From Escherichia phage vB_EcoS_MM-2, in the sequence record PV577658: a stretch of DNA of 64,000 nucleotides, one strand, 5' to 3'. The notes beneath the pieces were generated by a model. That model was not told the DNA's origin. It saw only the letters and a list, made by a program, of their open reading frames with translations, and did not search any database. Below, one piece after another: positions 434 to 60,736 of the stretch; positions within the stretch are counted from its first letter, which is position 1; every line of letters begins with the position of its first letter. The position numbers and the translations under genes are program-made.

Positions 434-623
434 GGGTTTAAACGCCGCTTTGGAAAACGCATTAATGCAGCACTGGGAAACTGGCTATAAGGATGGTGTT
501 GAATCCTGCGCTACTATGCTAGAAGTTATTGCTAATACCTTAATGGAGAAAGGCAATAAAGAATTAGCTGAGCTATTAGACAGTATTGGGCAAAACTTCA
601 GAGAACAGGTGAAAAATGCGTAG
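402..623 (+). CDS. hypothetical small early protein
   Basis: Track ORF; stop overlaps the start of the Sir2-like gene. Confidence 0.4.
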   Translation: MAFSKPMLPDKGLNAALENALMQHWETGYKDGVESCATMLEVIANTLMEKGNKELAELLDSIGQNFREQVKNA

Positions 624-1452
624 ATTAATTATTATTAGCGGTGCAGGTTTGAGTGTTGAAAGTGGTGTACGAGCTTTTCGTACTGATACTGCTAGTGGTA
701 AAGCATTGTGGGATGACTATGATCTAGAAGAAGTATGTAATATTCATGCCTTTCGTGGTAATTTTTATCATAAAACCCACATGTTTTACAACAAGCGTCG
801 TGAAGAGCTAAAAACTGTTGAACCCAATCTTGCGCATTTGCGTATTGGTGAATGGTATAAACAATATCCAGGTCAAGTAGTAAACTTGACTACCAACGTT
901 GATGACCTTATTGAGCGTGCTGGCGTCCCACATAGTGACATTCTGCACATTCACGGATATTTAAAAGAGGTTGTTGTAGCTGATAGCTACAATAGTAGCA
1001 ATAAACGGATTATTGATGTAGGATACAATTCTATTGATCCAGATGATTATAAATGGGTTAAACCTAATGTAATCTTCTTTGGAGAGCATGCTCCTGCATA
1101 CGCAGAAATGTATAATGTTTTTGATGGTATTACCAGTCAAGATATGATCATTGTGGTTGGTTGCTCTAACCAAGTAATTAACTTCTACTGGGAATTATTT
1201 CCTGTTCTTAATTTGACTGCTGCGAAACTTATGGTTGTTAACTACTATGATAGTGCCCTCGCAGCGGAACCGGTCTATCAAGGTATGACTCGTAGTGAGA
1301 TGTACCAGCTGGAGGAACGCGGTATCCCTTACTGGAGTAAAGGTGCGGTAGATGCTTTCAGTGACCCTGATTTTATTGCTCGTGTAGAAGCTCATTTAGA
1401 GGGTAGACCTTATGTGTCGAGAAGCAAGAGAAACAGGTATGTCCATAGTTAA
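616..1452 (+). CDS. Sir2-family (sirtuin-like) NAD-binding protein, apparently lacking the Zn-ribbon module
   Basis: Motifs SGAGLSVESGVRAFR (Sir2 GAGIS..SGIP.FR), TTNVDDLIERAG (TQNID-like), HIHGYL (catalytic His), VIFFGEH, VVGCSNQV. No Cys-x2-Cys pairs between the His motif and the FGE motif. Confidence 0.7.
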   Translation: MRRLIIISGAGLSVESGVRAFRTDTASGKALWDDYDLEEVCNIHAFRGNFYHKTHMFYNKRREELKTVEPNLAHLRIGEWYKQYPGQVVNLTTNVDDLIERAGVPHSDILHIHGYLKEVVVADSYNSSNKRIIDVGYNSIDPDDYKWVKPNVIFFGEHAPAYAEMYNVFDGITSQDMIIVVGCSNQVINFYWELFPVLNLTAAKLMVVNYYDSALAAEPVYQGMTRSEMYQLEERGIPYWSKGAVDAFSDPDFIARVEAHLEGRPYVSRSKRNRYVHS

Positions 1453-1621
1453 ATCTGTATATACACATCCCGACGATATATTTGTATGGGCAGATGGTAG
1501 TTGGTGCTATCGCTGTGAGCTGTGGGAGATGGACTATAAATCCGATGACTATGGTGTTATATATGTTGATACGGTTGAGTATGATACGTTCTTAGAAAGG
1601 AACAAAAATGGAAATAAGTAA
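1412..1621 (+). CDS. hypothetical protein (likely starts at internal Met near 1439)
   Basis: Track ORF overlapping the Sir2-like gene end; no motif. Confidence 0.35.
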   Translation: MCREARETGMSIVKSVYTHPDDIFVWADGSWCYRCELWEMDYKSDDYGVIYVDTVEYDTFLERNKNGNK

Positions 1622-2114
1622 TACTCCAATTATTTTTCTAGATATTGATGGGGTGCTCAATTCGAGCATCTCCCACCATCATGCACCTGATGACGAAAAG
1701 ATTTTCTTTGGAAGTGACTGGGTTTTCAAGCCGCTTCTCAAGGCTTTTCAGGACTTTATTCGTCCTTCTCCAATAATGATTGTTGGAGTATCATCTTGGT
1801 TCTCTGTCAGAAATGAGATGGAGAACGTTCAGATTATGACCGGATTAGGTCTTATCGATCGTTTTCTTGGTACAACGGATTTTACTGGGGGTGGGTTATC
1901 TAGGGGTAATTCTGTCCTTCGCTTCGTTGAAAAGCATAAGCTCAAACATTGGTGTGTTCTGGATGACGCTGGTGCTATGATGTATCAGTATCCAACGGTT
2001 ATAGTCAACGGTAGAACTGGAATAAATCTTCAAGATTTAATGGCTGTTAGCTATATGTTAGAGTTTAGTCCAGATCTTGAAATGTGTAAATCCTTACAAC
2101 AATTTAAGGTGTAA
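1608..2114 (+). CDS. HAD-superfamily phosphatase-like protein
   Basis: N-terminal FLDIDGVLN (HAD motif I, DxDG[TV]); remainder not assignable by eye. Confidence 0.5.
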   Translation: MEISNTPIIFLDIDGVLNSSISHHHAPDDEKIFFGSDWVFKPLLKAFQDFIRPSPIMIVGVSSWFSVRNEMENVQIMTGLGLIDRFLGTTDFTGGGLSRGNSVLRFVEKHKLKHWCVLDDAGAMMYQYPTVIVNGRTGINLQDLMAVSYMLEFSPDLEMCKSLQQFKV

Positions 2115-2116
2115 AT

Positions 2117-2545
2117 ATGTTCAATAATGTATTCTCTAAAGAAGCTAACCCAATTTTGGTTAACTTTTGGCGTACTCTCCCAGCTAGCCTGTATAATGAG
2201 GCTATTAACTCCTTGAAAATATGGTGTGAGAATAACGAAATCTCCTTTGCTTTTAAAGATGATATTGATGAGGCCCCCTGTATTGGTTTAATTGTGCAGG
2301 TAGAGGATGGTCTTGAAGAGATTGTCGGCTGGAAAGAGTTAGATGAAATGGGCTTAATTTTTGCGTTAAACTATAAGCTGTTTATGCCTGCTAAGCATCG
2401 CCTAGTTGTTAACTATAAAACTAGTGAATCTCCTGGTTTTCAGGTTAATGAACGTTATGGTTGGTCTTACTCACCGGAAGAAGTAAATGAGGGGATTCAG
2501 AAACTTCGACGTTTCGGGTATATGATCCCAGGTTTAACTGCTTAA
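2117..2545 (+). CDS. hypothetical protein, paralog 1 of a tandem pair
   Basis: Clear similarity to the downstream ORF: shared PCIG, W.EL..MGLI.ALN..LF.P, and C-terminal G(Y/I)(M/Y)(I/V)PGL. Confidence 0.5.
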   Translation: MFNNVFSKEANPILVNFWRTLPASLYNEAINSLKIWCENNEISFAFKDDIDEAPCIGLIVQVEDGLEEIVGWKELDEMGLIFALNYKLFMPAKHRLVVNYKTSESPGFQVNERYGWSYSPEEVNEGIQKLRRFGYMIPGLTA

Positions 2546-2554
2546 GGAGGCAGA

Positions 2555-2946
2555 ATGGAACAAGTATATTGGCGTCAGATTGACCCTAGTTTGGTGAAAC
2601 GTGCGGAGAAGCTGCTACAACGTTGGTTGTGGGTAAGACAAGCCTCCTTCACTTTTCCGAGCAGCAAACAGATGATCCCTGTATTGGTGTTTTCCTATCC
2701 GGCTACGCCGGGGAATGGGAATTGGATTGGAATGAATTGTCTGCTATGGGTTTAATTGTTGCCCTAAATTTCTCTTTGTTCCATCCACGTGGGTTGGCCA
2801 TACGTCGTGTGCCGGGTGATGGTTGTTCGCCCCATTTTTTACAGGTGGAAGATGATATTTGGGAGTACACTCCAGATATTCTCGCAGAAGCTAAAGAACA
2901 ATTAAATCGTGTTGGGATTTATGTTCCAGGCCTAAATGATGAATGA
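2555..2946 (+). CDS. paralog 2 of the tandem pair, reading frame interrupted (needs a -1 shift near 2653-2656)
   Basis: Track ORF 2555..2755 (frame 2) ends in ASFTF and track ORF 2623..2946 (frame 1) continues SEQQTDDPCIG; joined they align with paralog 1 (ISFAFKDDIDEAPCIG). Confidence 0.4.
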
Positions 2947-3031: not shown

Positions 3032-3538
3032 TTGTCGTTGACAATTTGGATGGATTATGTAATAATATATGTATTGGAGGTGAGGATGTCATTCACACAG
3101 CAAGAACTTTTAGATAACTTCCGATATGAAGATGGTAAGTTATTTAGAACTACAGGAAGAAATGCAGGGAAAGAATGTTGTGTTTCTACAGGTAACGGAT
3201 ATTATCGTATATCTCTAGGGAATAGGACTATGCTTCGGCATAGAGCAATATTTTTAATGCATCATGGATACTTACCTGATTTAGTAGATCATGTGAATAC
3301 TATAAAAGGTGATGATCGTATTGAAAATCTTAGAGAGCAGACAGTATCCGGTAATCTAAGAAATATCAAATATAAGAAAGGAATGCATGTTTACCCTTCT
3401 GGTAGTAAGAACTGGCAAGTGGTATTTACTATTAACCGTAAACGTATAGTTAAAGGAACATATGACAACTATGAGGTTGCATGTTCTATGGCCAAGATGT
3501 TTAGAGGTCAATTATACGGTAGGGAATCAATCCAGTAA
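3032..3538 (+). CDS. HNH homing endonuclease (likely start at Met ~3086)
   Basis: HNH motif LVDHVNTIKGDDRIENLREQT; free-standing between unrelated genes. Confidence 0.7.
   Translation: MSLTIWMDYVIIYVLEVRMSFTQQELLDNFRYEDGKLFRTTGRNAGKECCVSTGNGYYRISLGNRTMLRHRAIFLMHHGYLPDLVDHVNTIKGDDRIENLREQTVSGNLRNIKYKKGMHVYPSGSKNWQVVFTINRKRIVKGTYDNYEVACSMAKMFRGQLYGRESIQ
3038..3066 (+). promoter_or_regulatory. sigma70-like promoter upstream of the HNH gene, inside a TTGACAGTCAA palindrome region
   Basis: Two TTGACA hexamers (~3014 and ~3038), AT-rich -10 (aataat) 17 bp downstream of the second, then GGAGGTGA RBS. Confidence 0.4.
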
Positions 3539-26896: not shown

Positions 26897-29665
26897 CTAT
26901 GAGTTATCTGGCTTAATAAGCTCGCTAACAAGTTTCTTCAGTTCGGTTAATTCTTGCTCAAGTTTGTTAACTTTATCAGCTTGATAACGAAATGCGCAAG
27001 CTAGGTCTGCCATAATGACGTTGTTATCAAGCGCTAATGTGTCATCTGCTTTGTCAACAACAATTTGACGATCTACATATTCTTCACCTTCATCGTTAAC
27101 ACCTACAACATCTGCAAAAATATCACCTCCCGGGATTAATTTTACGTATTCGGGATCTATTTTTAGCAGGTCTTGGGCTATTAAGCCGAATCGTTGGATA
27201 TCGCTACCGTTGTATTTAAACATCGTTGGCAACCACTGCATAACTCGGTCATAGCTTTCTTTTCCATCTGTATAAATTATATCGTGCTTTAAATCTCTGT
27301 CAGAGTTAGCGGCCTTTTGAAAAATGAAATTTCCACTTGATGACCATGTGGTTATATCGTTTGAGGCTGGCTGAAACTGGAAGTTACAGAAAAAATTACC
27401 ATCACCACGAAGTCTTAGCGAGCAAAAAGGCCAAGCATTATTTCCCTGTGGGATAAGTCCCCAAGTTGCGCGAATTGGATAACCACCAGTGGATTGTGTA
27501 CCCCATGAAAGGCCAGGTGCCCATCCACCATCATTGTTAGCAATAGTCTCACCCCAAACAAGAGCATTACCCCAATAGTTAGGAGCATCCCATCCCATTT
27601 GTTGGGTTTTGCCAGTGTATTGAGCAGAATGCGTTCTGCCGTCAGGGTAAAACTTGTGCATATAGGACCGTATCCCTGCTTGATACAACTCTATTCCAAA
27701 AGATTCAACGTGTGTGTCGCCTCTTCTGATTAAACCAGCGATAGCGTAATCGTCATACCAGTTGTAACGACTTACACCAGTCCATGTGTTTATTGGTGGA
27801 TTCATGATTGAAAATAGTTGTGACGCATTGCGTTCATTCCCATCTGCATAAATACCAGCCCCAGGAGCTAAGGAAATACTTTTCGCTCCTGAAAAAGTAC
27901 CATTTTCATTAAACTGATAATACTGTGATGCCCCATTATGAAATACGCCTATTGTATGCTTTCCTACGCCTACTTGAGTCTCAAAATAAGACTGAGAAGA
28001 ACCAATATCTTCGCCTTGTGTATTCTTTAATTTTGAATGATATATACCTGCATTTGCAGTAGTTGCATTTTCCGTTTCGTTTTCAACATTAAGACTTAGG
28101 AACTTTGGTGCATGTTTCTCACCAAGCCCTATATTATTTCTGATACCATTCGCATCCTTAGCACCTGTACCACCAAATTGAATACCTAGTGGTAGCCATT
28201 GATTGGTTGTAGCATCATAAACGCCCCAATGATCCCCACCATCTGGAATGGTTAGATACTTGTTTTTATTTGGAGAATATAAAATTGTTTCACCAGAATT
28301 CTGAAACAGCCTATCAACTCCTAAATTATATCTAGCACCTTCAGGAGTATCTGCTCCTGTACCACCAGCCGCAGTTGATAATGGAAGAGTTTCCCATGAT
28401 ATTCCATCACCTTTTGTATCTCTCTGAAGTACAATAAGACCATCATCTCTAATAACAAATCTATATAATCTATTATGTGAATATAGAAAAGTATGAACCC
28501 CATCTTGTACAAGTGAGTCTATAAGGAGTGTCTGACGAGAAGCATTGATATTTGACAGATCTGAGAGATTATTTTCTTTTAGTAACGATTTACTAATGAT
28601 ACCTTCAGCTTTTCCAGCAGCTACTTCCGCACGCCCAGCGTCTGTAGATGCACTTTGTGCGCTACCAGCAGCATTGCTAGCTTGTTGTCCTGCTTCGGTA
28701 GCGCTATTACTTGCTTGTGCAGCCGAGGCTGCAGCAGCATCTTTTAGCACTGTAGTTTCCGTTACCGCACTATCCTTAATACCTTGTGTGTCTGTTTTTA
28801 ATTGCTCAACATCAGATTTTAAAGCCGTTGTTTCACCTATAGTGCTGTCTTTAATTAGTTGAGTATCTGTTTTTAATTGCTCAACATCTGATTTTAAGCC
28901 TTGAATAGTAGTTACTGATTGGTTAGCTGAGGCTGCGGAATGGGCTGCATTAGTCTCACTAGTTTTTGCATTGGTTTCACTAGTTTTTGCATTGGCTTCA
29001 CTAGCTTTTGCATTAGTTTCCGAGGTTTTTGCAGCGGATGCTGATGCGGCGGCTTGTGCAGAGAATATTTCTGCCCCATCTCTATAGCCTTTAGAATCCG
29101 AAGCAGAAGCAGCAGCATTAGTTTCACTAGCCTTTGCCTTATCTTCACTAGTCTTTGCTGCAATAGCAGAAGCAGCAGCATTAGTTTCACTAGCCTTTGC
29201 CTTATCTTCGCTAGCCTTTGCATTAGTCTCACTAGTTTTTGCGTTAGTCTCACTAGTTTTTGCATTAGTTTCACTAGCCTTTGCCTTATCTTCGCTAGTT
29301 TTAGCATTAGTCTCAGATATTTTAGCTGCAGCTGCTGATTCCTCCGATTTAGTAGCTGATGCAGCAGATTGAGTAGCAGATGTAGCGGACTGAGTGGCAG
29401 AGGCTTCAGAAGCTCCAGCAGAAATAGCAGCTTCCTGTTCAGAGTTCTTAGCATTAAGCTCCGAAGTTTTAGCCGCTATCTCAGAATCTTTTGCAGCTGC
29501 AGCAGACTTAGCTGCAGCCTCAATAGAAGATACTAACTCACTTGCAGTAATAGAGCTAATAGAATTACCTAGAGTTACTGTATATCTAGGAAACTTACTA
29601 GCAGTAGCTTTAGTATCATCAATATTTAATATTTGTTGTACAATAATTTTAGTAGTTACTGCCAT
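26897..29665 (-). CDS. ltf: L-shaped tail fibre protein with C-terminal intramolecular chaperone (S74-like) domain
   Basis: C-terminal DLKHDIIYTDGKESYDRVMQWLP...LIAQDLLKIDPEYVKLIP chaperone-like domain; internal TSETNAK heptad repeats. Confidence 0.75.
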   Translation of the reverse strand: MAVTTKIIVQQILNIDDTKATASKFPRYTVTLGNSISSITASELVSSIEAAAKSAAAAKDSEIAAKTSELNAKNSEQEAAISAGASEASATQSATSATQSAASATKSEESAAAAKISETNAKTSEDKAKASETNAKTSETNAKTSETNAKASEDKAKASETNAAASAIAAKTSEDKAKASETNAAASASDSKGYRDGAEIFSAQAAASASAAKTSETNAKASEANAKTSETNAKTSETNAAHSAASANQSVTTIQGLKSDVEQLKTDTQLIKDSTIGETTALKSDVEQLKTDTQGIKDSAVTETTVLKDAAAASAAQASNSATEAGQQASNAAGSAQSASTDAGRAEVAAGKAEGIISKSLLKENNLSDLSNINASRQTLLIDSLVQDGVHTFLYSHNRLYRFVIRDDGLIVLQRDTKGDGISWETLPLSTAAGGTGADTPEGARYNLGVDRLFQNSGETILYSPNKNKYLTIPDGGDHWGVYDATTNQWLPLGIQFGGTGAKDANGIRNNIGLGEKHAPKFLSLNVENETENATTANAGIYHSKLKNTQGEDIGSSQSYFETQVGVGKHTIGVFHNGASQYYQFNENGTFSGAKSISLAPGAGIYADGNERNASQLFSIMNPPINTWTGVSRYNWYDDYAIAGLIRRGDTHVESFGIELYQAGIRSYMHKFYPDGRTHSAQYTGKTQQMGWDAPNYWGNALVWGETIANNDGGWAPGLSWGTQSTGGYPIRATWGLIPQGNNAWPFCSLRLRGDGNFFCNFQFQPASNDITTWSSSGNFIFQKAANSDRDLKHDIIYTDGKESYDRVMQWLPTMFKYNGSDIQRFGLIAQDLLKIDPEYVKLIPGGDIFADVVGVNDEGEEYVDRQIVVDKADDTLALDNNVIMADLACAFRYQADKVNKLEQELTELKKLVSELIKPDNS
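28945..29320. repeat. tandem 21-bp repeats inside the tail-fibre gene
   Basis: About 14 copies of gcattagt(t/c)tcactag(t/c)(t/c)ttt in two blocks, encoding T-S-E-T-N-A-K heptads. Confidence 0.8.
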
Positions 29666-38700: not shown

Positions 38701-39398
38701 AGGGTCTGAACAGGAGTACCTGTCTGAGTACCTACTATAACACCAAATTTTTCTAGACGATTTAGCTGATCACCTAGTTTAAGTTGTTCAAATGCTGATT
38801 GCAAAACGAAGATGTTGGAAGCAAGAGCTGCGTACATAATAGGTAAACTACCACCTATCTTAGCCATTGCCGCAAAATCACGAGTTGCACCACGTGCTGA
38901 ACCAGAAGTATTACCAATAGCTCTAGAAGCTCTACCAGCGGCACCAGCAGTGTCGTTAAAACCTCTAGCTGTACCACCTAATGCTCTATTAGTATCGTAT
39001 AATCTATCCTGGACTTTTTCTGTTGCAGCTGCAACATCATTACCCATTGTTTTAACAGATCTAGAAACTCCATCAAATCCGACTTCTAATTTATCTGCTA
39101 CTTCAATCATTGTAATAGCGAGGTCGTCTAACTTAGCCCCTATATCATTAATAGATTTAGTAACACTAAGCATACCCCTACTAGCTTGCATTTTAGTAAG
39201 ACTTTTCGCTGCTCTGTCTGCTGCCCTCTCAATGGAATAAAGAGTTCTGGGCATTTTACCTAACTGCTCATTTGTCAGTTCGGAAGCAGCAGCAGCATTT
39301 TCCAACGCATCAGATACGTTTTCAATAGACTTTGCAGTACGAGTTGCCCCCTTCTGTTTAACGTCTATTAGTAATTCTCGTATTAGCTTATCAGTCAT
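35718..39398 (-). CDS. tail tape-measure protein (T5 pb2-like)
   Basis: 1226 aa, long coiled-coil and Ala/Gly-rich segments. Confidence 0.8.
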   Translation of the reverse strand: MTDKLIRELLIDVKQKGATRTAKSIENVSDALENAAAASELTNEQLGKMPRTLYSIERAADRAAKSLTKMQASRGMLSVTKSINDIGAKLDDLAITMIEVADKLEVGFDGVSRSVKTMGNDVAAATEKVQDRLYDTNRALGGTARGFNDTAGAAGRASRAIGNTSGSARGATRDFAAMAKIGGSLPIMYAALASNIFVLQSAFEQLKLGDQLNRLEKFGVIVGTQTGTPVQTLARSLQEAAGYAISFEEAMRQASSASAYGFDAEQLNKFGLVARRAAAVLGVDMTDALNRVIKGVSKQEIELLDELGVTIRLNDAYADYVKQLNAANTGITYNVNSLTTFQKQQAYANAVIAESTKRFGYLDEVLRATPWEQFAANADAALRKIQQAAAKYLGPVIDAINTVFYTSQASISAEAARAQEKTNRQIDPTNVGAVALSLAASEEGYNKALDMYKESLDKRNKLKSEFDKRMEQADFYTKLAIRQVGEGIPVGLAAAGASEANKQFVAETAAMGLQVSRLDKEVEDSTENLTAWKSAFQTAGAAAAKANPEFQKQINLQKDVYDPDAVYDFNSAALKGLTEQQKAYNQTKKTSSDLANDFQNIATSTDTAAKTSATFEEVIKNVSSLSAGTGKSADEYVKSLNLGFNTLSEMKTASQALSEYVKLTGNETKNQLAVQQKIADVYNQTKDKEKAQEAGRHLELQQLEEQEAALRRVLQTNQGNKAVEKEIEKIQLEKLKLTNQGMEAQKKVKDYTDKILGVDREIALLNDRTMTSTQYRLAQLKLELTIEEEKYEWYLKQADKQKEAEQSRRAQAQISRELWEAEKQATATHVSALMDALEVSQTQRNVTGQSQILTERLSILQQQLELSKGNTEEEIKYRNEIYKTSAALEQLRKQRDSQMQQQVGSSVGAVYTPTTGLSGEDKDFADMQNRMASYDQAISKLSELNSEATAVAQSMGNLTNAMIQFSQGSLDTTSMIASGMQTVASMIQYSTSQQVSAIDQAIAAEQKRDGKSEASKAKLKKLEAEKLKIQQDAAKKQIIIQTAVAVMQAATAVPYPFSIPLMVAAGLAGALALAQASSASSMSSIADSGADTTSYLTLGERQKNIDVSMSANAGELSYIRGDQGIGSANSFVPRAEGGNMYPGVSYQMGEHGTEVVTPMVPMKATPNDELKASSNSTSGRPIILNISAMDAASFREFASSNSSALRDAVELALNENGASLKTLGNS

Positions 39399-39404
39399 GT
39401 TTTA

Positions 39405-39446
39405 TTTTTCCCAATAAAAAAGGCTCTGGGCAAATCACCCAGAGCC
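39405..39446 (-). terminator. rho-independent terminator upstream of the tape-measure gene
   Basis: ggctctggg-caaatca-cccagagcc hairpin; minus-strand T-run within the shared TTTTTTATTGGGAAAAATAAA module. Confidence 0.6.
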
Positions 39447-39481
39447 AAGCCTCATCGTGGAACGCCCATTGGAGGAAACTT

Positions 39482-39850
39482 TTACCGTGCACGAGATCTA
39501 GCATGTGGCTTAACGTTAGGAATCCTTCCGTTTTGCGGTTTATGCTTCTCAGCACGTTTACGTGCAGCATCTACAGCTTTAGCATCAAATATATTGATAA
39601 TGTGTAGAACAAATTCTTTTTCTATAGGATCAGTAATCCCATAAATATCAAATAAAACACCTAGTGCAGCCTTATCCTTACCTATAAAAATAGGAAAGTC
39701 ACCCGGTATGAAACAGTCAATCAGACTGTTATAAATATTCATACTAATAGATACAATAGGTGGAAAATCTTCGAGTTCAACGGGCATAGCCTTAGGATCA
39801 GGCTCTATACCCATTGACTCGCAAAGTATTAAATATTGTTGTTTAGTCAT
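39482..39850 (-). CDS. hypothetical tail-assembly protein
   Basis: Position immediately upstream of the tape-measure gene. Confidence 0.35.
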   Translation of the reverse strand: MTKQQYLILCESMGIEPDPKAMPVELEDFPPIVSISMNIYNSLIDCFIPGDFPIFIGKDKAALGVLFDIYGITDPIEKEFVLHIINIFDAKAVDAARKRAEKHKPQNGRIPNVKPHARSRAR

Positions 39851-48192: not shown

Positions 48193-48716
48193 TATAAGAA
48201 CCTTGCGAATCCTGATTTTGTTTCAGTCTTGACTTGTGTCTTTTCTTGAGGATTCTGTAATTTGTCTTTCTGCTTTTGAACCCACACTTTTTGCTTATTA
48301 GCAGAAAATAAAGGAGGTTCTTTTGTGTAAACCTTATGTAATAATTGGTGATGGTGTACACAAAGGGTAACAGTGTCTTCTACTAGCTCATGCCTATATC
48401 GATCATAGAATGCCGTCCTATTTGAAAGGACTATTTCTTCGTCAGTGAAATCCAATTGGAGTTCTTTAGCAAATTTTTTAACTAGTAGAGACACCGTATG
48501 GTAATGATGAAGCTCTAATTCTTCAGCACAACCGCAGATAGCACATTGAGAGTCTTTTTTATATTGACTTTTTATTCCGTCTCTCATAAGGGATATAGCA
48601 TCGCGTTTATATTTTATATTGCTTGCCATAGTGTTCTCCTCAACTGTATGAATATAGTATACATAATCGTATCGAATTTGTAAAGGGGATTTTAAAATGC
48701 AGGAATGGGATACCAA
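48192..48716 (-). CDS. HNH endonuclease (likely start at internal Met ~48629)
   Basis: CAICGC...HHYH...CVHHHQLLH zinc-binding HNH motif; inserted between terminase and portal genes. Confidence 0.65.
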   Translation of the reverse strand: MVSHSCILKSPLQIRYDYVYYIHTVEENTMASNIKYKRDAISLMRDGIKSQYKKDSQCAICGCAEELELHHYHTVSLLVKKFAKELQLDFTDEEIVLSNRTAFYDRYRHELVEDTVTLCVHHHQLLHKVYTKEPPLFSANKQKVWVQKQKDKLQNPQEKTQVKTETKSGFARFL

Positions 48717-48743
48717 CTGAGTAGTATCCCTTCCTATACTTAT

Positions 48744-50060
48744 TTATTTACCACGGGAAATAGAGTAAATTCCATAGCGCAGAGCATCACAGAGGTGAGA
48801 GTTAGCATCATGACGTGGTTTTTCACGTGATAATTTTTCTTCACCTTCTTGGAAATCCCACTTGTAATTCTGCAATGCGTGAATTAATGAGGAACATGAA
48901 GCATCCACAATAATCTTGCCTTGTTGGAATAGTGCTTGTAAACATGCTAATCCATCTAGGACAGATTTTTTAGCTGGAGCCGATGCAATTTCATGTTCAT
49001 AAGCTAAGTCCTGACGGAACTGAGCTGCGGCAGAGTCAACAAAAACACGATCAACTTTATAACGATCTATACAGTGCTGAATGTAAGCCGCATGCTGAGC
49101 TGTGGTTTTCTCCGCCTGCTGGTACTCTTCTAATACATAGTAGGTATCTGTATCATAGTGGTACTTAATAGTAAGAACTGCTGTAGGATCACGATAACCA
49201 ACGTCAATACCAAGCAACGTTTCGAATGCTTCATCATCTTTAAAGAAGTGACGCATACCTTTAAGGTCTTTAACATGGTCTATAGCATTAAAGGTATCAA
49301 AGATCTGACCTTCGAATACAGAGAAGTCAGCCTCATATTCCTGACGAAAGTAGTTTTTACTAACTGTACGACGTGCTTCTTCGATATCATTCAGATCAGC
49401 ACGTGGGTTATCACGATACGTACCATGAATAGATACCCAGTTAGGTAATGTATCATCAAATCCATAGGCATAAAACTCTTTAAACCAGTTACCACCACGA
49501 GGAGTAGAGATAAATAGAGCCTTAGAGTTTGGTTTATCTAGGGTAGGACGCAACTGAACTCTAAAGGCATCACCACCCACATCGGAAATTGCCGCCTCAT
49601 CAAAGATGATAAAGTCATATGAACGCCCAACTGCGGAGTCAGCCTGCGCCGCAGAAGCTAGTTTAAACAGAGAACCATTAGCTAACTCAATCTCTTTATC
49701 TTTAGCATTCTCACGTTCGGTTTGTAGGCCATATTTTTTAATAAGACCACGAATCTGAGACCATCCGATGTTGGCCAGTGAGTAGTTAGGAGCAACTACT
49801 AGCACCTTTACGTTAGGCTCCAGCAACTTTAGAAACCCAAGTGTGTATGCGATGAAGGATTTACCTACACGGCGTGATACACACGCCGTTACAAAACGAT
49901 GTCTAGGGTCTTCTAGCGCATTGATAATCGCTATTTGAGGACCATTAGGTGTAATACCCTCTTGAGCTAGTATTCCTGAAACAGGTAGACGAAAGAAACG
50001 TTTGTCTATTCCGAAATCAATAACATCAACTGTGTTAACGTAGGGTCTTGATACTTCCAT
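48744..50060 (-). CDS. terL: terminase large subunit
   Basis: Walker A-like VSRRVGKS, Walker B FIIFDEAA, C-terminal nuclease acidic residues. Confidence 0.8.
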   Translation of the reverse strand: MEVSRPYVNTVDVIDFGIDKRFFRLPVSGILAQEGITPNGPQIAIINALEDPRHRFVTACVSRRVGKSFIAYTLGFLKLLEPNVKVLVVAPNYSLANIGWSQIRGLIKKYGLQTERENAKDKEIELANGSLFKLASAAQADSAVGRSYDFIIFDEAAISDVGGDAFRVQLRPTLDKPNSKALFISTPRGGNWFKEFYAYGFDDTLPNWVSIHGTYRDNPRADLNDIEEARRTVSKNYFRQEYEADFSVFEGQIFDTFNAIDHVKDLKGMRHFFKDDEAFETLLGIDVGYRDPTAVLTIKYHYDTDTYYVLEEYQQAEKTTAQHAAYIQHCIDRYKVDRVFVDSAAAQFRQDLAYEHEIASAPAKKSVLDGLACLQALFQQGKIIVDASCSSLIHALQNYKWDFQEGEEKLSREKPRHDANSHLCDALRYGIYSISRGK

Positions 50061-50552: not shown

Positions 50553-52310
50553 TTAGGTAAGGCGTTGAACTGTTACTCTTAATCTAGGTAGAAAAACTGC
50601 ACTACCTAAACTTACGTGCATAACTACCCCTAACTCTACATTTCCATTCCCCAGATTTTTAGCAGTATATATAAAACTATTTCTACTTAGGGCATTGTTA
50701 GGTGTGTATCTAAAAGCAGATGTAGTATGAAAAGGTACTAAATACCCTACTGGTAATGTTAAAATCTGGTGGAATATCGCGTCACCATTACTATAACTAT
50801 ATGCTCTTCTTCCTTGCACCTGAAACACACCGTTATTCCATGTATTAGCAGGGACACCTGCACAGTTAAGATTACCTGATATAACTTCAGTGGTAAGAAT
50901 TACTGTAGCATTGCCACCCGGTATACCTAGCCCAATAGTTGATAAACCAACGTATCTATCTCCTGTTCCTGGGTAGCTGGGGGTAATATCATCTCCCATA
51001 TAAGAACTACCTACATTTCCACCAAAAAGTCGTAATGGAACTGCTGATGGTCCCCAAACAACCCCGTGTTCATTACCGATAGTATTATCATTAGAGTTTA
51101 CGTACCATTGCTTACCAGCTCCGAATTTGTAAATACTAATTTGAGACTTAGCCCCTCCATAGTCCACAGGAGACCATAAACTCCCGTTACTAGAACCTAC
51201 AAGTTCACACCTTGCGGTGGTATCCCCAAAGGCCCCAGTATATGCTGCATTATTTCCAATATATTCCATATCTGGTCTATAACCTAAGTTACCGAAAGCG
51301 TTCTGGTTAATAAACTTGTATCCAGTATTGGGAAGACTAACCCCTTTAATTATGAAATTAGAAGGAGATATAAGAATATCTGAACCAGTAAAAGGATTAC
51401 CAGAGATACTCATACCACCATTTGAGTATCTTAAATTCAAAACGTACCAAATAACTTTAGTAGGAGTTATGTTATACCAATCTTGTAGTATTGTAGAATC
51501 ACCAGATTGATTAGCTAAATTAGTTGTAGAACCCCTACAAACAAACCTATTACCCCCATCATGATACATAGTATTTACATTACCAGGAAGACCTTGTCTT
51601 ACCCCACCATACCCACGTATGTTAGAGTTACAAACATAGAACCAATCGTGCCCTCTGTGTGCTGATCCTAAAGGAGACATCCATCCTGGGTCCCAGTAAT
51701 TTTGGTTATTCCCATCTATAGGTACTGTACTACTATTAGTAGGGAATCCTAACTGTGCAAAAGCTTCTGCAACAGTAACCCCTACTGGAGCTCCTGCACC
51801 TGGCCTAACTATACCATGATACGTACTATGTAGGGTAGTTCCACCAGTACCATTCCTAGAAATAGATTCTTCATGCCCTATAGATGGATTATAGTTATAT
51901 GTACCAGATGCCAGGCTATTACCAAATGCAAATCCACTAGTCTGGGAAACACTAGCAAAAGATCTAAAAGGATCTGCTTGAGTGGCAACTATAGTTTGAC
52001 CCACCTTACTCTGAGTACCATTAAGAAAAGCTCTGTGAGTACCATTAATCTCAATAGCAGTTAATATAACTCTACCAGGATCGTTAGATTTAATATTTAT
52101 TATGTCAGAGGGCATCTGACATACAAAAAACCCATTTCCGGCATTTCCTAACCCAGCCTCATAAGTACCATCAACTAGGACAAATGGCATATCACTATGA
52201 AAAATACTATTGGCATTTGGACTATAGTGACGATTAATGTCACCACCAGATTCAGTATTTAAAGATAGTACGGTCTTACCATCGCTATATTTTCCAGCGA
52301 AAAAACCCAT
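50553..52310 (-). CDS. receptor-binding tail protein (T5 pb5-like)
   Basis: 585 aa, Gly/Asn/Ser-rich beta protein, transcribed divergently from the lipoprotein gene as oad/llp are in T5. Confidence 0.6.
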
Positions 52311-52335
52311 ATAATCTCCTATTATAAAAATGTAT

Positions 52336-52364
52336 TTGCTTTCATCCCTCTATTTTGCTATAAT
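52336..52364 (+). promoter_or_regulatory. early promoter (TTGCTT-17-TGcTATAAT) for the lipoprotein gene
   Basis: ttgctttcatccctctattttgctataat then agattcataaatt box. Confidence 0.6.
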
Positions 52365-52395
52365 AGATTCATAAATTAGAAATGGAGAGATAAAT

Positions 52396-52662
52396 ATGAA
52401 AAAGTTTGTGATTGCACTAGTTGCCGCAGTTATGTTATCTGGTTGTGCACCTGCTCCCAAACCATTTTGTACTGGATTTGTAAAATCTTTTGGTGGTGCG
52501 GGAGAAGAACATTACGGCCTCAAGGTTCAAAAAGTTCGTATTAAGGGAGATCGCTTCCCAGTAGTACAGCTCCGTACTAAGTTTGGATGGTGGGATCTCA
52601 GTCAGTTTGACCTTAAATATGGTGATTGTAAATTTAAACTAGAGCAATCTAACTACATGTAA
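52396..52662 (+). CDS. llp: Llp-type outer-membrane lipoprotein (receptor-blocking superinfection exclusion)
   Basis: Signal peptide with lipobox (MKKFVIALVAAVMLSGC); 88 aa precursor; position next to the receptor-binding gene. Confidence 0.75.
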   Translation: MKKFVIALVAAVMLSGCAPAPKPFCTGFVKSFGGAGEEHYGLKVQKVRIKGDRFPVVQLRTKFGWWDLSQFDLKYGDCKFKLEQSNYM

Positions 52663-52839
52663 TTAGTATAAAGCAAAAAGACATCTAAGTAAACTAAATT
52701 TTTTATTTTTTGGATGGTATATTGGCAGAAACCACTATGTAAGAAAATGAGAAGTCCTTCTAGGAAGTCACAAGCATGGTTGGTTATATACAAATTATAA
52801 AATATTTTAAAATACCATACTCATAGGAGCAAGAAAGAT

Positions 52840-52967
52840 ATGTCAAATAAAAGAAAGAACAGACGCGGAGAAGTGTACGAAGCGTGGATTAATATTTACG
52901 GATTTGGTTTTGTATTATTCCTAATCTTCGTAGGTTTTTGGTTAGCAGCTATGGCGGGGTGGATTTA
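52840..52967 (+). CDS. small membrane peptide (~42 aa), first of a coupled array
   Basis: Hand-translated: MSNKRKNRRGEVYEAWINIYGFGFVLFLIFVGFWLAAMAGWI; AGGAG RBS; stop overlaps next start (TAATG). Confidence 0.4.
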
Positions 52968-59726: not shown

Positions 59727-60506
59727 ATGAGGCTTTATAAACCTGATAATGCCACCGTTTTAAAAGGTGCATTGCGCAACCTGCTGGATGGTAGCAAGTC
59801 AACCAGCATTAAACATTTTATTAACAAGATTGAAACTATTCATCAAAACTTTTTTGATGATTATGACGCTTATGATATGGATAGTTTTCTACCCTTATAT
59901 AGACAAGGGGCAACGCTAGTTTTATATAATCGGGATTGCCATATCTTTACAGGCAGGGGAGCGGGGCCGGATACCGATTTTATTGTTGCGCAGGGTAATA
60001 ATATTGTTGCGTATCATAGCAATTCAGGCCGTCAATCATTTAATATAAATAGTTTTGAGCTTATTGGACTTGATCTGATAAATGGACTTTCTAGCATTGA
60101 GGGATTTTTAGATGTTATCTGGAAGTATTTACCCGCTGGATGGCATAAGCCGGATAACGACGGATCTCAATATACCGGTATAATGGCTTTTGATGGCGAC
60201 GGTAATTTTTTGTTACCACGGGAGCTATACCCATATATTTATGATGGGGATATAGAAAGCGCTGGTTTTTCTTTCTGGAAAGATGAAGATCAGATTATTG
60301 ACAGCGTAGAAAACCATGCTGTAAATTCTAACACTCAAAGCGTTAACACTCAAACTACTGAAAACAAAGGAAAAAACACTATGACCAAGATTGCTAACAT
60401 CGTTGCCGCTAATAAATCCGCCGTTGTAAATGCTGCAAAACTGGAAGCGGGTAAAATTGCACTGACTCAAATCACGAAAGTAGCGGCTAAAAAGCACCGT
60501 TCATGA
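59727..60506 (+). CDS. hypothetical protein, 259 aa
   Basis: Track ORF with RBS GAGGGAGG; no recognisable motif. Confidence 0.45.
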   Translation: MRLYKPDNATVLKGALRNLLDGSKSTSIKHFINKIETIHQNFFDDYDAYDMDSFLPLYRQGATLVLYNRDCHIFTGRGAGPDTDFIVAQGNNIVAYHSNSGRQSFNINSFELIGLDLINGLSSIEGFLDVIWKYLPAGWHKPDNDGSQYTGIMAFDGDGNFLLPRELYPYIYDGDIESAGFSFWKDEDQIIDSVENHAVNSNTQSVNTQTTENKGKNTMTKIANIVAANKSAVVNAAKLEAGKIALTQITKVAAKKHRS

Positions 60507-60736
60507 TTAAAGGCTATATTGATACGCCGATTGGTCGAGTAGTGATTGCTAACCTGCTAAGTGTAGCGGTTGACCAGTACGCACCGACTAACCAGAAAGC
60601 GAAAGCGGTAGCAGGGGCGGCTATGGAAGCGGCAATGCTGGAAATGGTGCAAAGTTTTAACATCGCTGAAATGATTGATGAAATGGTGAAAGGTATTGAT
60701 ATTTCTACTTTTACCACTAGCACCGAAATCGAGTAA
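60503..60736 (+). CDS. hypothetical protein
   Basis: Track ORF, ATGA overlap with upstream gene. Confidence 0.4.
   Translation: MIKGYIDTPIGRVVIANLLSVAVDQYAPTNQKAKAVAGAAMEAAMLEMVQSFNIAEMIDEMVKGIDISTFTTSTEIE

Follow-up and report, generated by a model that had tools for sequence, protein, structure and literature searches.

One-base deletion in the T5.107 ortholog of the T5-like phage vB_EcoS_MM-1: an ordinary knock-out or a residual consensus error

The gene T5.107 of Escherichia phage T5 (AAS77153.1) and its orthologs (AKFV33 orf110, Shivani gp135, ECOP18_141) each consist of a single 393-nt ORF, coding for 130 amino acids and located between the ortholog of T5.106 and the gene for a replication-origin-binding protein. 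Both T5.106 and T5.107 are annotated in T5, AKFV33, Shivani and ECOP18. The two proteins match the Pfam family DUF7415 as well as phrog_2502 and phrog_3954 above the curated cut-offs, and these families contain phage proteins of unknown function. We found no literature on DUF7415, on T5.106/T5.107 or on phage vB_EcoS_MM-1. In the 64,000-nt stretch of DNA analyzed here (the window), the T5.107 ortholog lies on the plus strand at 2555..2946, at the same place as in these phages. It is 93–96% identical to their genes at the nucleotide level, and start codon, Shine-Dalgarno sequence and stop are alike. It differs from them in being one base short at codon 35, and a tblastn search with T5.107 finds it in two frames.

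Over 1.1 kb around 2555..2946 the window shows 100% identity with Escherichia phage vB_EcoS_MM-1 (PV577657.1), a T5-like Tequintavirus isolated from German sewage on E. coli K-12 W3110, and 90–96% identity with many T5-like phages. Window coordinates are obtained by subtracting 53,931 from those of PV577657.1. Upstream of the gene lie the orthologs of T5.105 (1608..2114; Pfam HAD_SAK_2, E=4e-20) and of T5.106 (2117..2545, plus strand). The latter is the paralog of the broken gene and is intact: it codes for 142 amino acids with two DUF7415 modules and a C-terminal helix, and matches T5.106 over its full length and in one frame (tblastn, 92% identity). Several database records, as well as phrog_18062, call the T5.105 ortholog 'Sir2 (NAD-dependent deacetylase)', a name that properly belongs to the gene at 616..1452. 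Some records also carry the labels 'tail tube protein' or 'exonuclease' for the orthologs of T5.106 and T5.107, without support. By direct reading of the sequence, a Shine-Dalgarno element AAGGAGG is present on the plus strand at 2544..2550, 4 nt 5' of the ATG at 2555, and overlaps the T5.106 stop codon (2543–2545). It is identical in AKFV33; Shivani has AAGGGGA there. On the other side, an HNH homing-endonuclease gene (3086..3538; Pfam HNH_3) is located between the orthologs of T5.107 and T5.108, with the origin-binding protein gene next to it. This HNH gene is present in AKFV33, Shivani and ECOP18 and absent from T5 and from those relatives whose match ends at position 962 of the query.

The 142-aa product of 2117..2545 and the frame-repaired 130-aa product of 2555..2946 align in BLASTP with 35% identity over 124 residues (E=1e-21), which bears out the homology proposed for them in an earlier interpretation made from the letters of this DNA (hereafter the sequence-only reading). 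There, the pair had been taken for a tandem duplication. The two are indeed paralogs, but old ones: because their amino acid identity is just 35% and both genes occur in T5, AKFV33, Shivani and ECOP18, and in fact in every relative examined, a recent duplication does not hold, and sequence comparison identifies them as ancient paralogs. The T5.106 ortholog matches DUF7415 (PF24187) with E=2.9e-35 and phrog_2502 with E=1.3e-62. At full length, the T5.106-like protein scores 120.7 bits against DUF7415 and the repaired T5.107-like protein 101.3 bits (gathering score 27 bits). The separate halves of the two paralogs reach 60.3, 48.7, 69.4 and 51.8 bits, with E=3e-19 and 9.1e-14 for the halves of the T5.106 ortholog and E=8.7e-13 for the C-terminal half of T5.107. 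Since each half matches the 53-position profile on its own, T5.106 and T5.107 can be described as two-module proteins with a C-terminal helix. This architecture is drawn from the separate Pfam matches of the halves, because an hhalign comparison of the N-terminal with the C-terminal module, using a shallow alignment, gave no match. A search of NCBIfam yielded no matches for either paralog, and the predicted fold (pLDDT 86, pTM 0.83) retrieved solely other DUF7415 phage proteins from BFVD. A profile search among 1.84 billion representative proteins returned 164 clusters. Most of these are single-module proteins of 70–100 amino acids that match the second module only, a few are longer, and one is fused to a thymidylate kinase domain.

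The tblastn search with T5.107 gave two adjacent HSPs in different frames, residues 1–44 of the query at 2555–2686 and residues 15–130 at 2599–2943. The homology thus passes from the frame beginning at 2555 into that beginning at 2623, as the sequence-only reading had noticed. The downstream part is in the -1 frame; therefore one base added, or one base read twice, restores the ORF of 130 codons. According to the alignment with relatives, codons 1–34 and the first two bases (CC) of the codon for Pro35 are still in the original frame (2555..2658, plus strand). The rest, codons 36–130 and the stop, is in the -1 frame (2659..2946, plus strand, within the HSP of residues 15–130) and codes for the last part of module 1, the complete second DUF7415 module and the C-terminal helix. 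Alignment with AKFV33, Shivani and a total of 22 relatives gives TTC ACT TTT CCN GAG CAG for the latter, where N is G, A or T and the codon in all cases one for Pro; the window has TTT CC- GAG. The lesion is a single-base deletion on the plus strand at 2658..2659, by which the codon for Pro35 lost its third base. The deposited sequence of the deletion allele at this site is TTTTCCGAGCAG; the intact reading is TTTTCCNGAG and the deletion reading TTTTCCGAG. Because the nearest relatives read CCG GAG, the event was probably a reduction of GG to G at 2658/2659. This is not where the lesion had been suspected, namely in the TTTT run at 2653..2656 (plus strand), with five T as the conceivable original state. 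The run is the same in all intact relatives, AKFV33 and Shivani included, and the corresponding pattern TTCNCTTTTCCNGAG with its four T occurs in 22 of 22 relatives and in 21 IMG/VR contigs. A fifth T would yield Phe-Ser-Glu instead of the conserved Phe-Pro-Glu. The shifted codon 35 of the window is CCG, and the native Pro is still encoded.

The gene now reads as two overlapping ORFs of 66 and 107 amino acids, the -1 frame being open from 2623 to 2946. The 66-aa ORF of the ORF list (2555..2755, plus strand; CDS0142 in PV577657.1) comprises 35 native and 31 out-of-frame residues and ends with TAA at 2753–2755. Residues 3–35 of its truncated product match positions 1–34 of the DUF7415 profile. 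For the C-terminal part, the annotators called another ORF of 66 amino acids (2746..2946, plus strand; CDS0143 in PV577657.1), which can be read directly in the sequence. Its ATG at 2746 precedes the stop codon of the truncated ORF by 7 nt, the overlap having the sequence ATGGGTTTAA. No clear Shine-Dalgarno element could be recognized upstream of this ATG, and the initial 6 residues of module 2 (DWNELS) are not included in the ORF. Inside the broken gene there is also a terminator-like element at 2814..2841, consisting of a hairpin (2814–2832) and a following run of six T. This hairpin is partly made by substitutions private to the window, including a C-to-T at 2836 that corresponds to L95F. 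One such site was found where 2.0 are expected, which is within chance.

How often does the split occur elsewhere? The 392-nt query matched 225 phage records, from which a spread sample of 60 rows was examined. In all 59 other rows the aligned span exceeds that of the window by 1 nt, or by 7 nt in the two cases that have an additional 6-nt insertion. With a 44-nt junction query, in which every 28-mer spans the junction, MM-1 was the sole match among 50,697 phage records. In IMG/VR, the pattern of the deletion allele had 0 matches and that of the intact allele 21. An intact T5.107 ORF for 129–132 amino acids is present in the 22 extracted relatives, the 59 other sampled records and 21 IMG/VR contigs, and a protein search gave 21 ortholog clusters of which every one is 128–136 amino acids long. 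The ortholog is also intact, with 393 nt, in ECOP18, which is closely related to the window in other parts of the genome. An intact single ORF in related phages, for which the sequence-only reading had suggested to look, is thus the rule in 22/22 extracted relatives, 59/59 other sampled records and 21 IMG/VR contigs. The opposite outcome that it had envisaged, two separate ORFs kept in the relatives, was seen in none of these.

Among 17 unique intact relatives (136 pairs), dN/dS of T5.107 is 0.09, from which it follows that T5.107 is a real, constrained protein-coding gene. The description as a decaying duplicate can be kept in one respect, as the knock-out may be real, but what is hit is the ortholog of T5.107, constrained in its relatives, and not a recent duplicate. 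Of the private changes in the repaired window copy, three are non-synonymous (G26W, where the Gly is almost invariant, C84R and L95F) and one is synonymous. Comparison with all relatives gives this copy a dN/dS of 0.15 and comparison with the nearest one 0.27, as against 0.09 among relatives. This hints at a mild, lineage-specific relaxation of constraint, although on the small basis of three against one substitutions. Similar counts of private changes are found in some intact relatives, and F95 as well as variation at position 84 occur in intact orthologs.

All annotated or callable ORFs of T5 were compared with the window and the rest of MM-1 (118-kb genome). Approximately 150 ORFs are shared with T5, and a split into two frames was seen in just two of them. 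Neither belongs to the long replication or structural genes, and no essential gene is hit. Thus, the assembly is not riddled with indels, and this explanation was discarded. An apparent third case, T5.067, was due to an ORF that had been called too long. The second split gene is the ortholog of T5.011 (336 amino acids in T5), divided into ORFs of 259 and 77 amino acids at 59727..60506 and 60503..60736 by contraction of a run of six A to five at 60489–60493. T5 and the best 40 relatives, including ECOP18 with 99.3% identity, have six A and are all one base longer; the window has five. Since this gene is located in the terminal repeat, the contraction is present in both copies of the record.

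The same comparison with T5 revealed several differences in gene content. T5.103 has no match (1431..1439), and neither has T5.141, which would be expected between the homologs of pb2 and T5.142 (39398..39485). For T5.154, only residues 2–28 of 277 match (48649–48729), in a 118-nt gap (48629..48747) between the T5.153 homolog and the terminase gene. A host-recognition module divergent from T5 is found at 28955..29665, 50556..52310 and 52310..52840. The homolog of pb5 (oad) is just 29% identical to that of T5, for the L-shaped tail fibre the match is limited to the first 201 residues (53% identity), and the Llp lipoprotein has no match in the comparison with T5. Judged by sequence, these differences suggest a different receptor or O-antigen specificity.

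Broken copies of T5.107 exist also in other records. The Salmonella phages Kenya-K38 (OQ291035.1) and Kenya-K45 (OQ291061.1; copy at L032:1793-2215), as well as a contig of Logan SRR9988199 (copy at L031:2001-2394), have an extra G in a run of five at codons 25–26, and BFVD lists a truncated, 74-aa form of T5.107 from Salmonella phage SE11. In the window this run of five G is broken by a private G-to-T at 2630. The disruptions in Kenya, Logan and SE11 arose independently, or are errors, and their site is not that of MM-1. They show that T5.107 calls with a disrupted frame turn up sporadically in different sources and lend no support to a conserved two-ORF layout; they are consistent with T5.107 being dispensable.

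Two explanations account for most of the probability. We give about 0.55 to a genuine mutation, a non-programmed one-base deletion by which a dispensable early accessory gene has lost its function. Alternatively, the phage DNA may contain an intact 393-nt T5.107 of which one base was dropped in the sequencing or assembly consensus, a substantial possibility that falls short of an even chance. For such an error speaks that the deletion allele is restricted to one record and that the other split gene, a one-base contraction of a run of six A likewise unique to this record, has the classic pattern of a consensus error. A base is lost in both lesions, deletions being the most frequent residual error of long-read consensus sequences, and the other fragmentary T5.107 calls in the databases fall in the homopolymer of five or six G. 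The missing base, however, lies outside any long homopolymer, in a context that is at most CCGG, a dinucleotide run; frame breaks are restricted to two in about 150 ORFs shared with T5, none of them in an essential gene; and dN/dS of the repaired gene is slightly raised. The suggestion of a homopolymer sequencing error thus stands as far as a consensus error is concerned, but not with regard to the homopolymer that had been named. The exact MM-1 proteins had no match in an index of independent assemblies. On balance we slightly favor the genuine mutation over the consensus error.

The remaining explanations assign a function to the split, and we rate them far lower. A programmed -1 ribosomal frameshift, with the tRNA-Phe in the P-site slipping on T_TTT, or transcriptional slippage at the T run could in principle produce a full-length protein in a regulated manner, as the sequence-only reading had considered. 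The tRNA-Phe could re-pair perfectly on TTTT one base back, and the -1 frame is open all the way from 2623 to 2946. Yet the same TTTT occurs in every relative with a single ORF, thus the run did not evolve together with the frame change. The zero-frame codons ACT TTT CCG contain no X_XXY_YYZ heptamer and leave a slip of a single tRNA on T_TTT as the only option. The downstream 84 nt (2657–2740) fold with -23.7 kcal/mol compared with a mean of -21.3 for shuffled sequences (z=-0.81), which is no better than the shuffles, and a -1 slip would swap the conserved Pro35 for Ser. Transcriptional slippage needs a run of about 8–9 or more A or T, and four T are far below this length. With no heptamer, no structure and a split that is conserved nowhere among the relatives, sampled records and contigs, we reject slippage of either kind as highly improbable. 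Somewhat less improbable, but still very unlikely, is a functional split, in which termination at 2753–2755 is followed by reinitiation at the ATG at 2746 to give a single-module DUF7415 protein of 66 amino acids. Stop and ATG overlap within 10 nt, stand-alone single-module proteins of 70–100 amino acids are the commonest form of the family, and the fragment encoded by 2746..2946 matches profile positions 10–52 with E=2.3e-07, weaker than the intact halves but above the Pfam cut-off (31.4 versus 27 bits). Against it, the ATG has no Shine-Dalgarno element ahead of it, the fragment is devoid of the conserved DWNE-S module start that all stand-alone members have kept, the arrangement is not conserved in relatives, and it arises automatically from this frame change in any T5.107 gene. 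More speculative still would be the idea that a real lesion with reinitiation at ATG 2746 yields a stand-alone DUF7415 protein and that, seen together with the frameshifts in the G run, module 1 of T5.107 is a hot spot of mutation for on/off switching or remodelling of an accessory, possibly host-interaction, gene.

Under the preferred reading of a genuine loss-of-function mutation, translation would start normally at ATG 2555, with the strong Shine-Dalgarno element upstream. It would leave the native frame after 35 native residues, within the first of the two DUF7415 modules, and stop at 2753–2755, giving a 66-aa product that is probably non-functional. Module 2 and the C-terminal helix (2659..2946) would no longer be made to any useful degree. 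We infer for this reading that the base is truly missing from the phage DNA, not merely from the consensus, and that the phage can do without T5.107 on E. coli K-12. With a real deletion, MM-1 would represent a naturally occurring T5.107 knock-out able to grow on this host, a hint that a conserved DUF7415 paralog may be dispensable under laboratory conditions. For users of PV577657.1, the practical consequence is that two places are doubtful, 2658/2659 and 60489–60493 in window coordinates, and that each of the two genes is at present represented by two artificial 'hypothetical proteins'. Beyond this the finding matters little: it is a one-off single-base deletion, either an ordinary knock-out or a residual consensus error.

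The programmed -1 frameshift sites known from phages, such as G/GT of the tail assembly chaperone and A_AAA_AAG of dnaX, resemble the window gene in having two overlapping frames and a short homopolymer in the overlap. The window gene differs from them by the lack of a tandem-slippery heptamer, of a stimulatory structure and of a conserved two-frame layout. The broken T5.107 copies of Kenya-K38, Kenya-K45 and the Logan contig share with it a frame break caused by an indel of 1 nt within DUF7415 module 1, and they retain the same C-terminal ORF of 66 amino acids. Their lesion, however, is an extra G and not a deletion, and it is situated 30 nt upstream of the site in MM-1.
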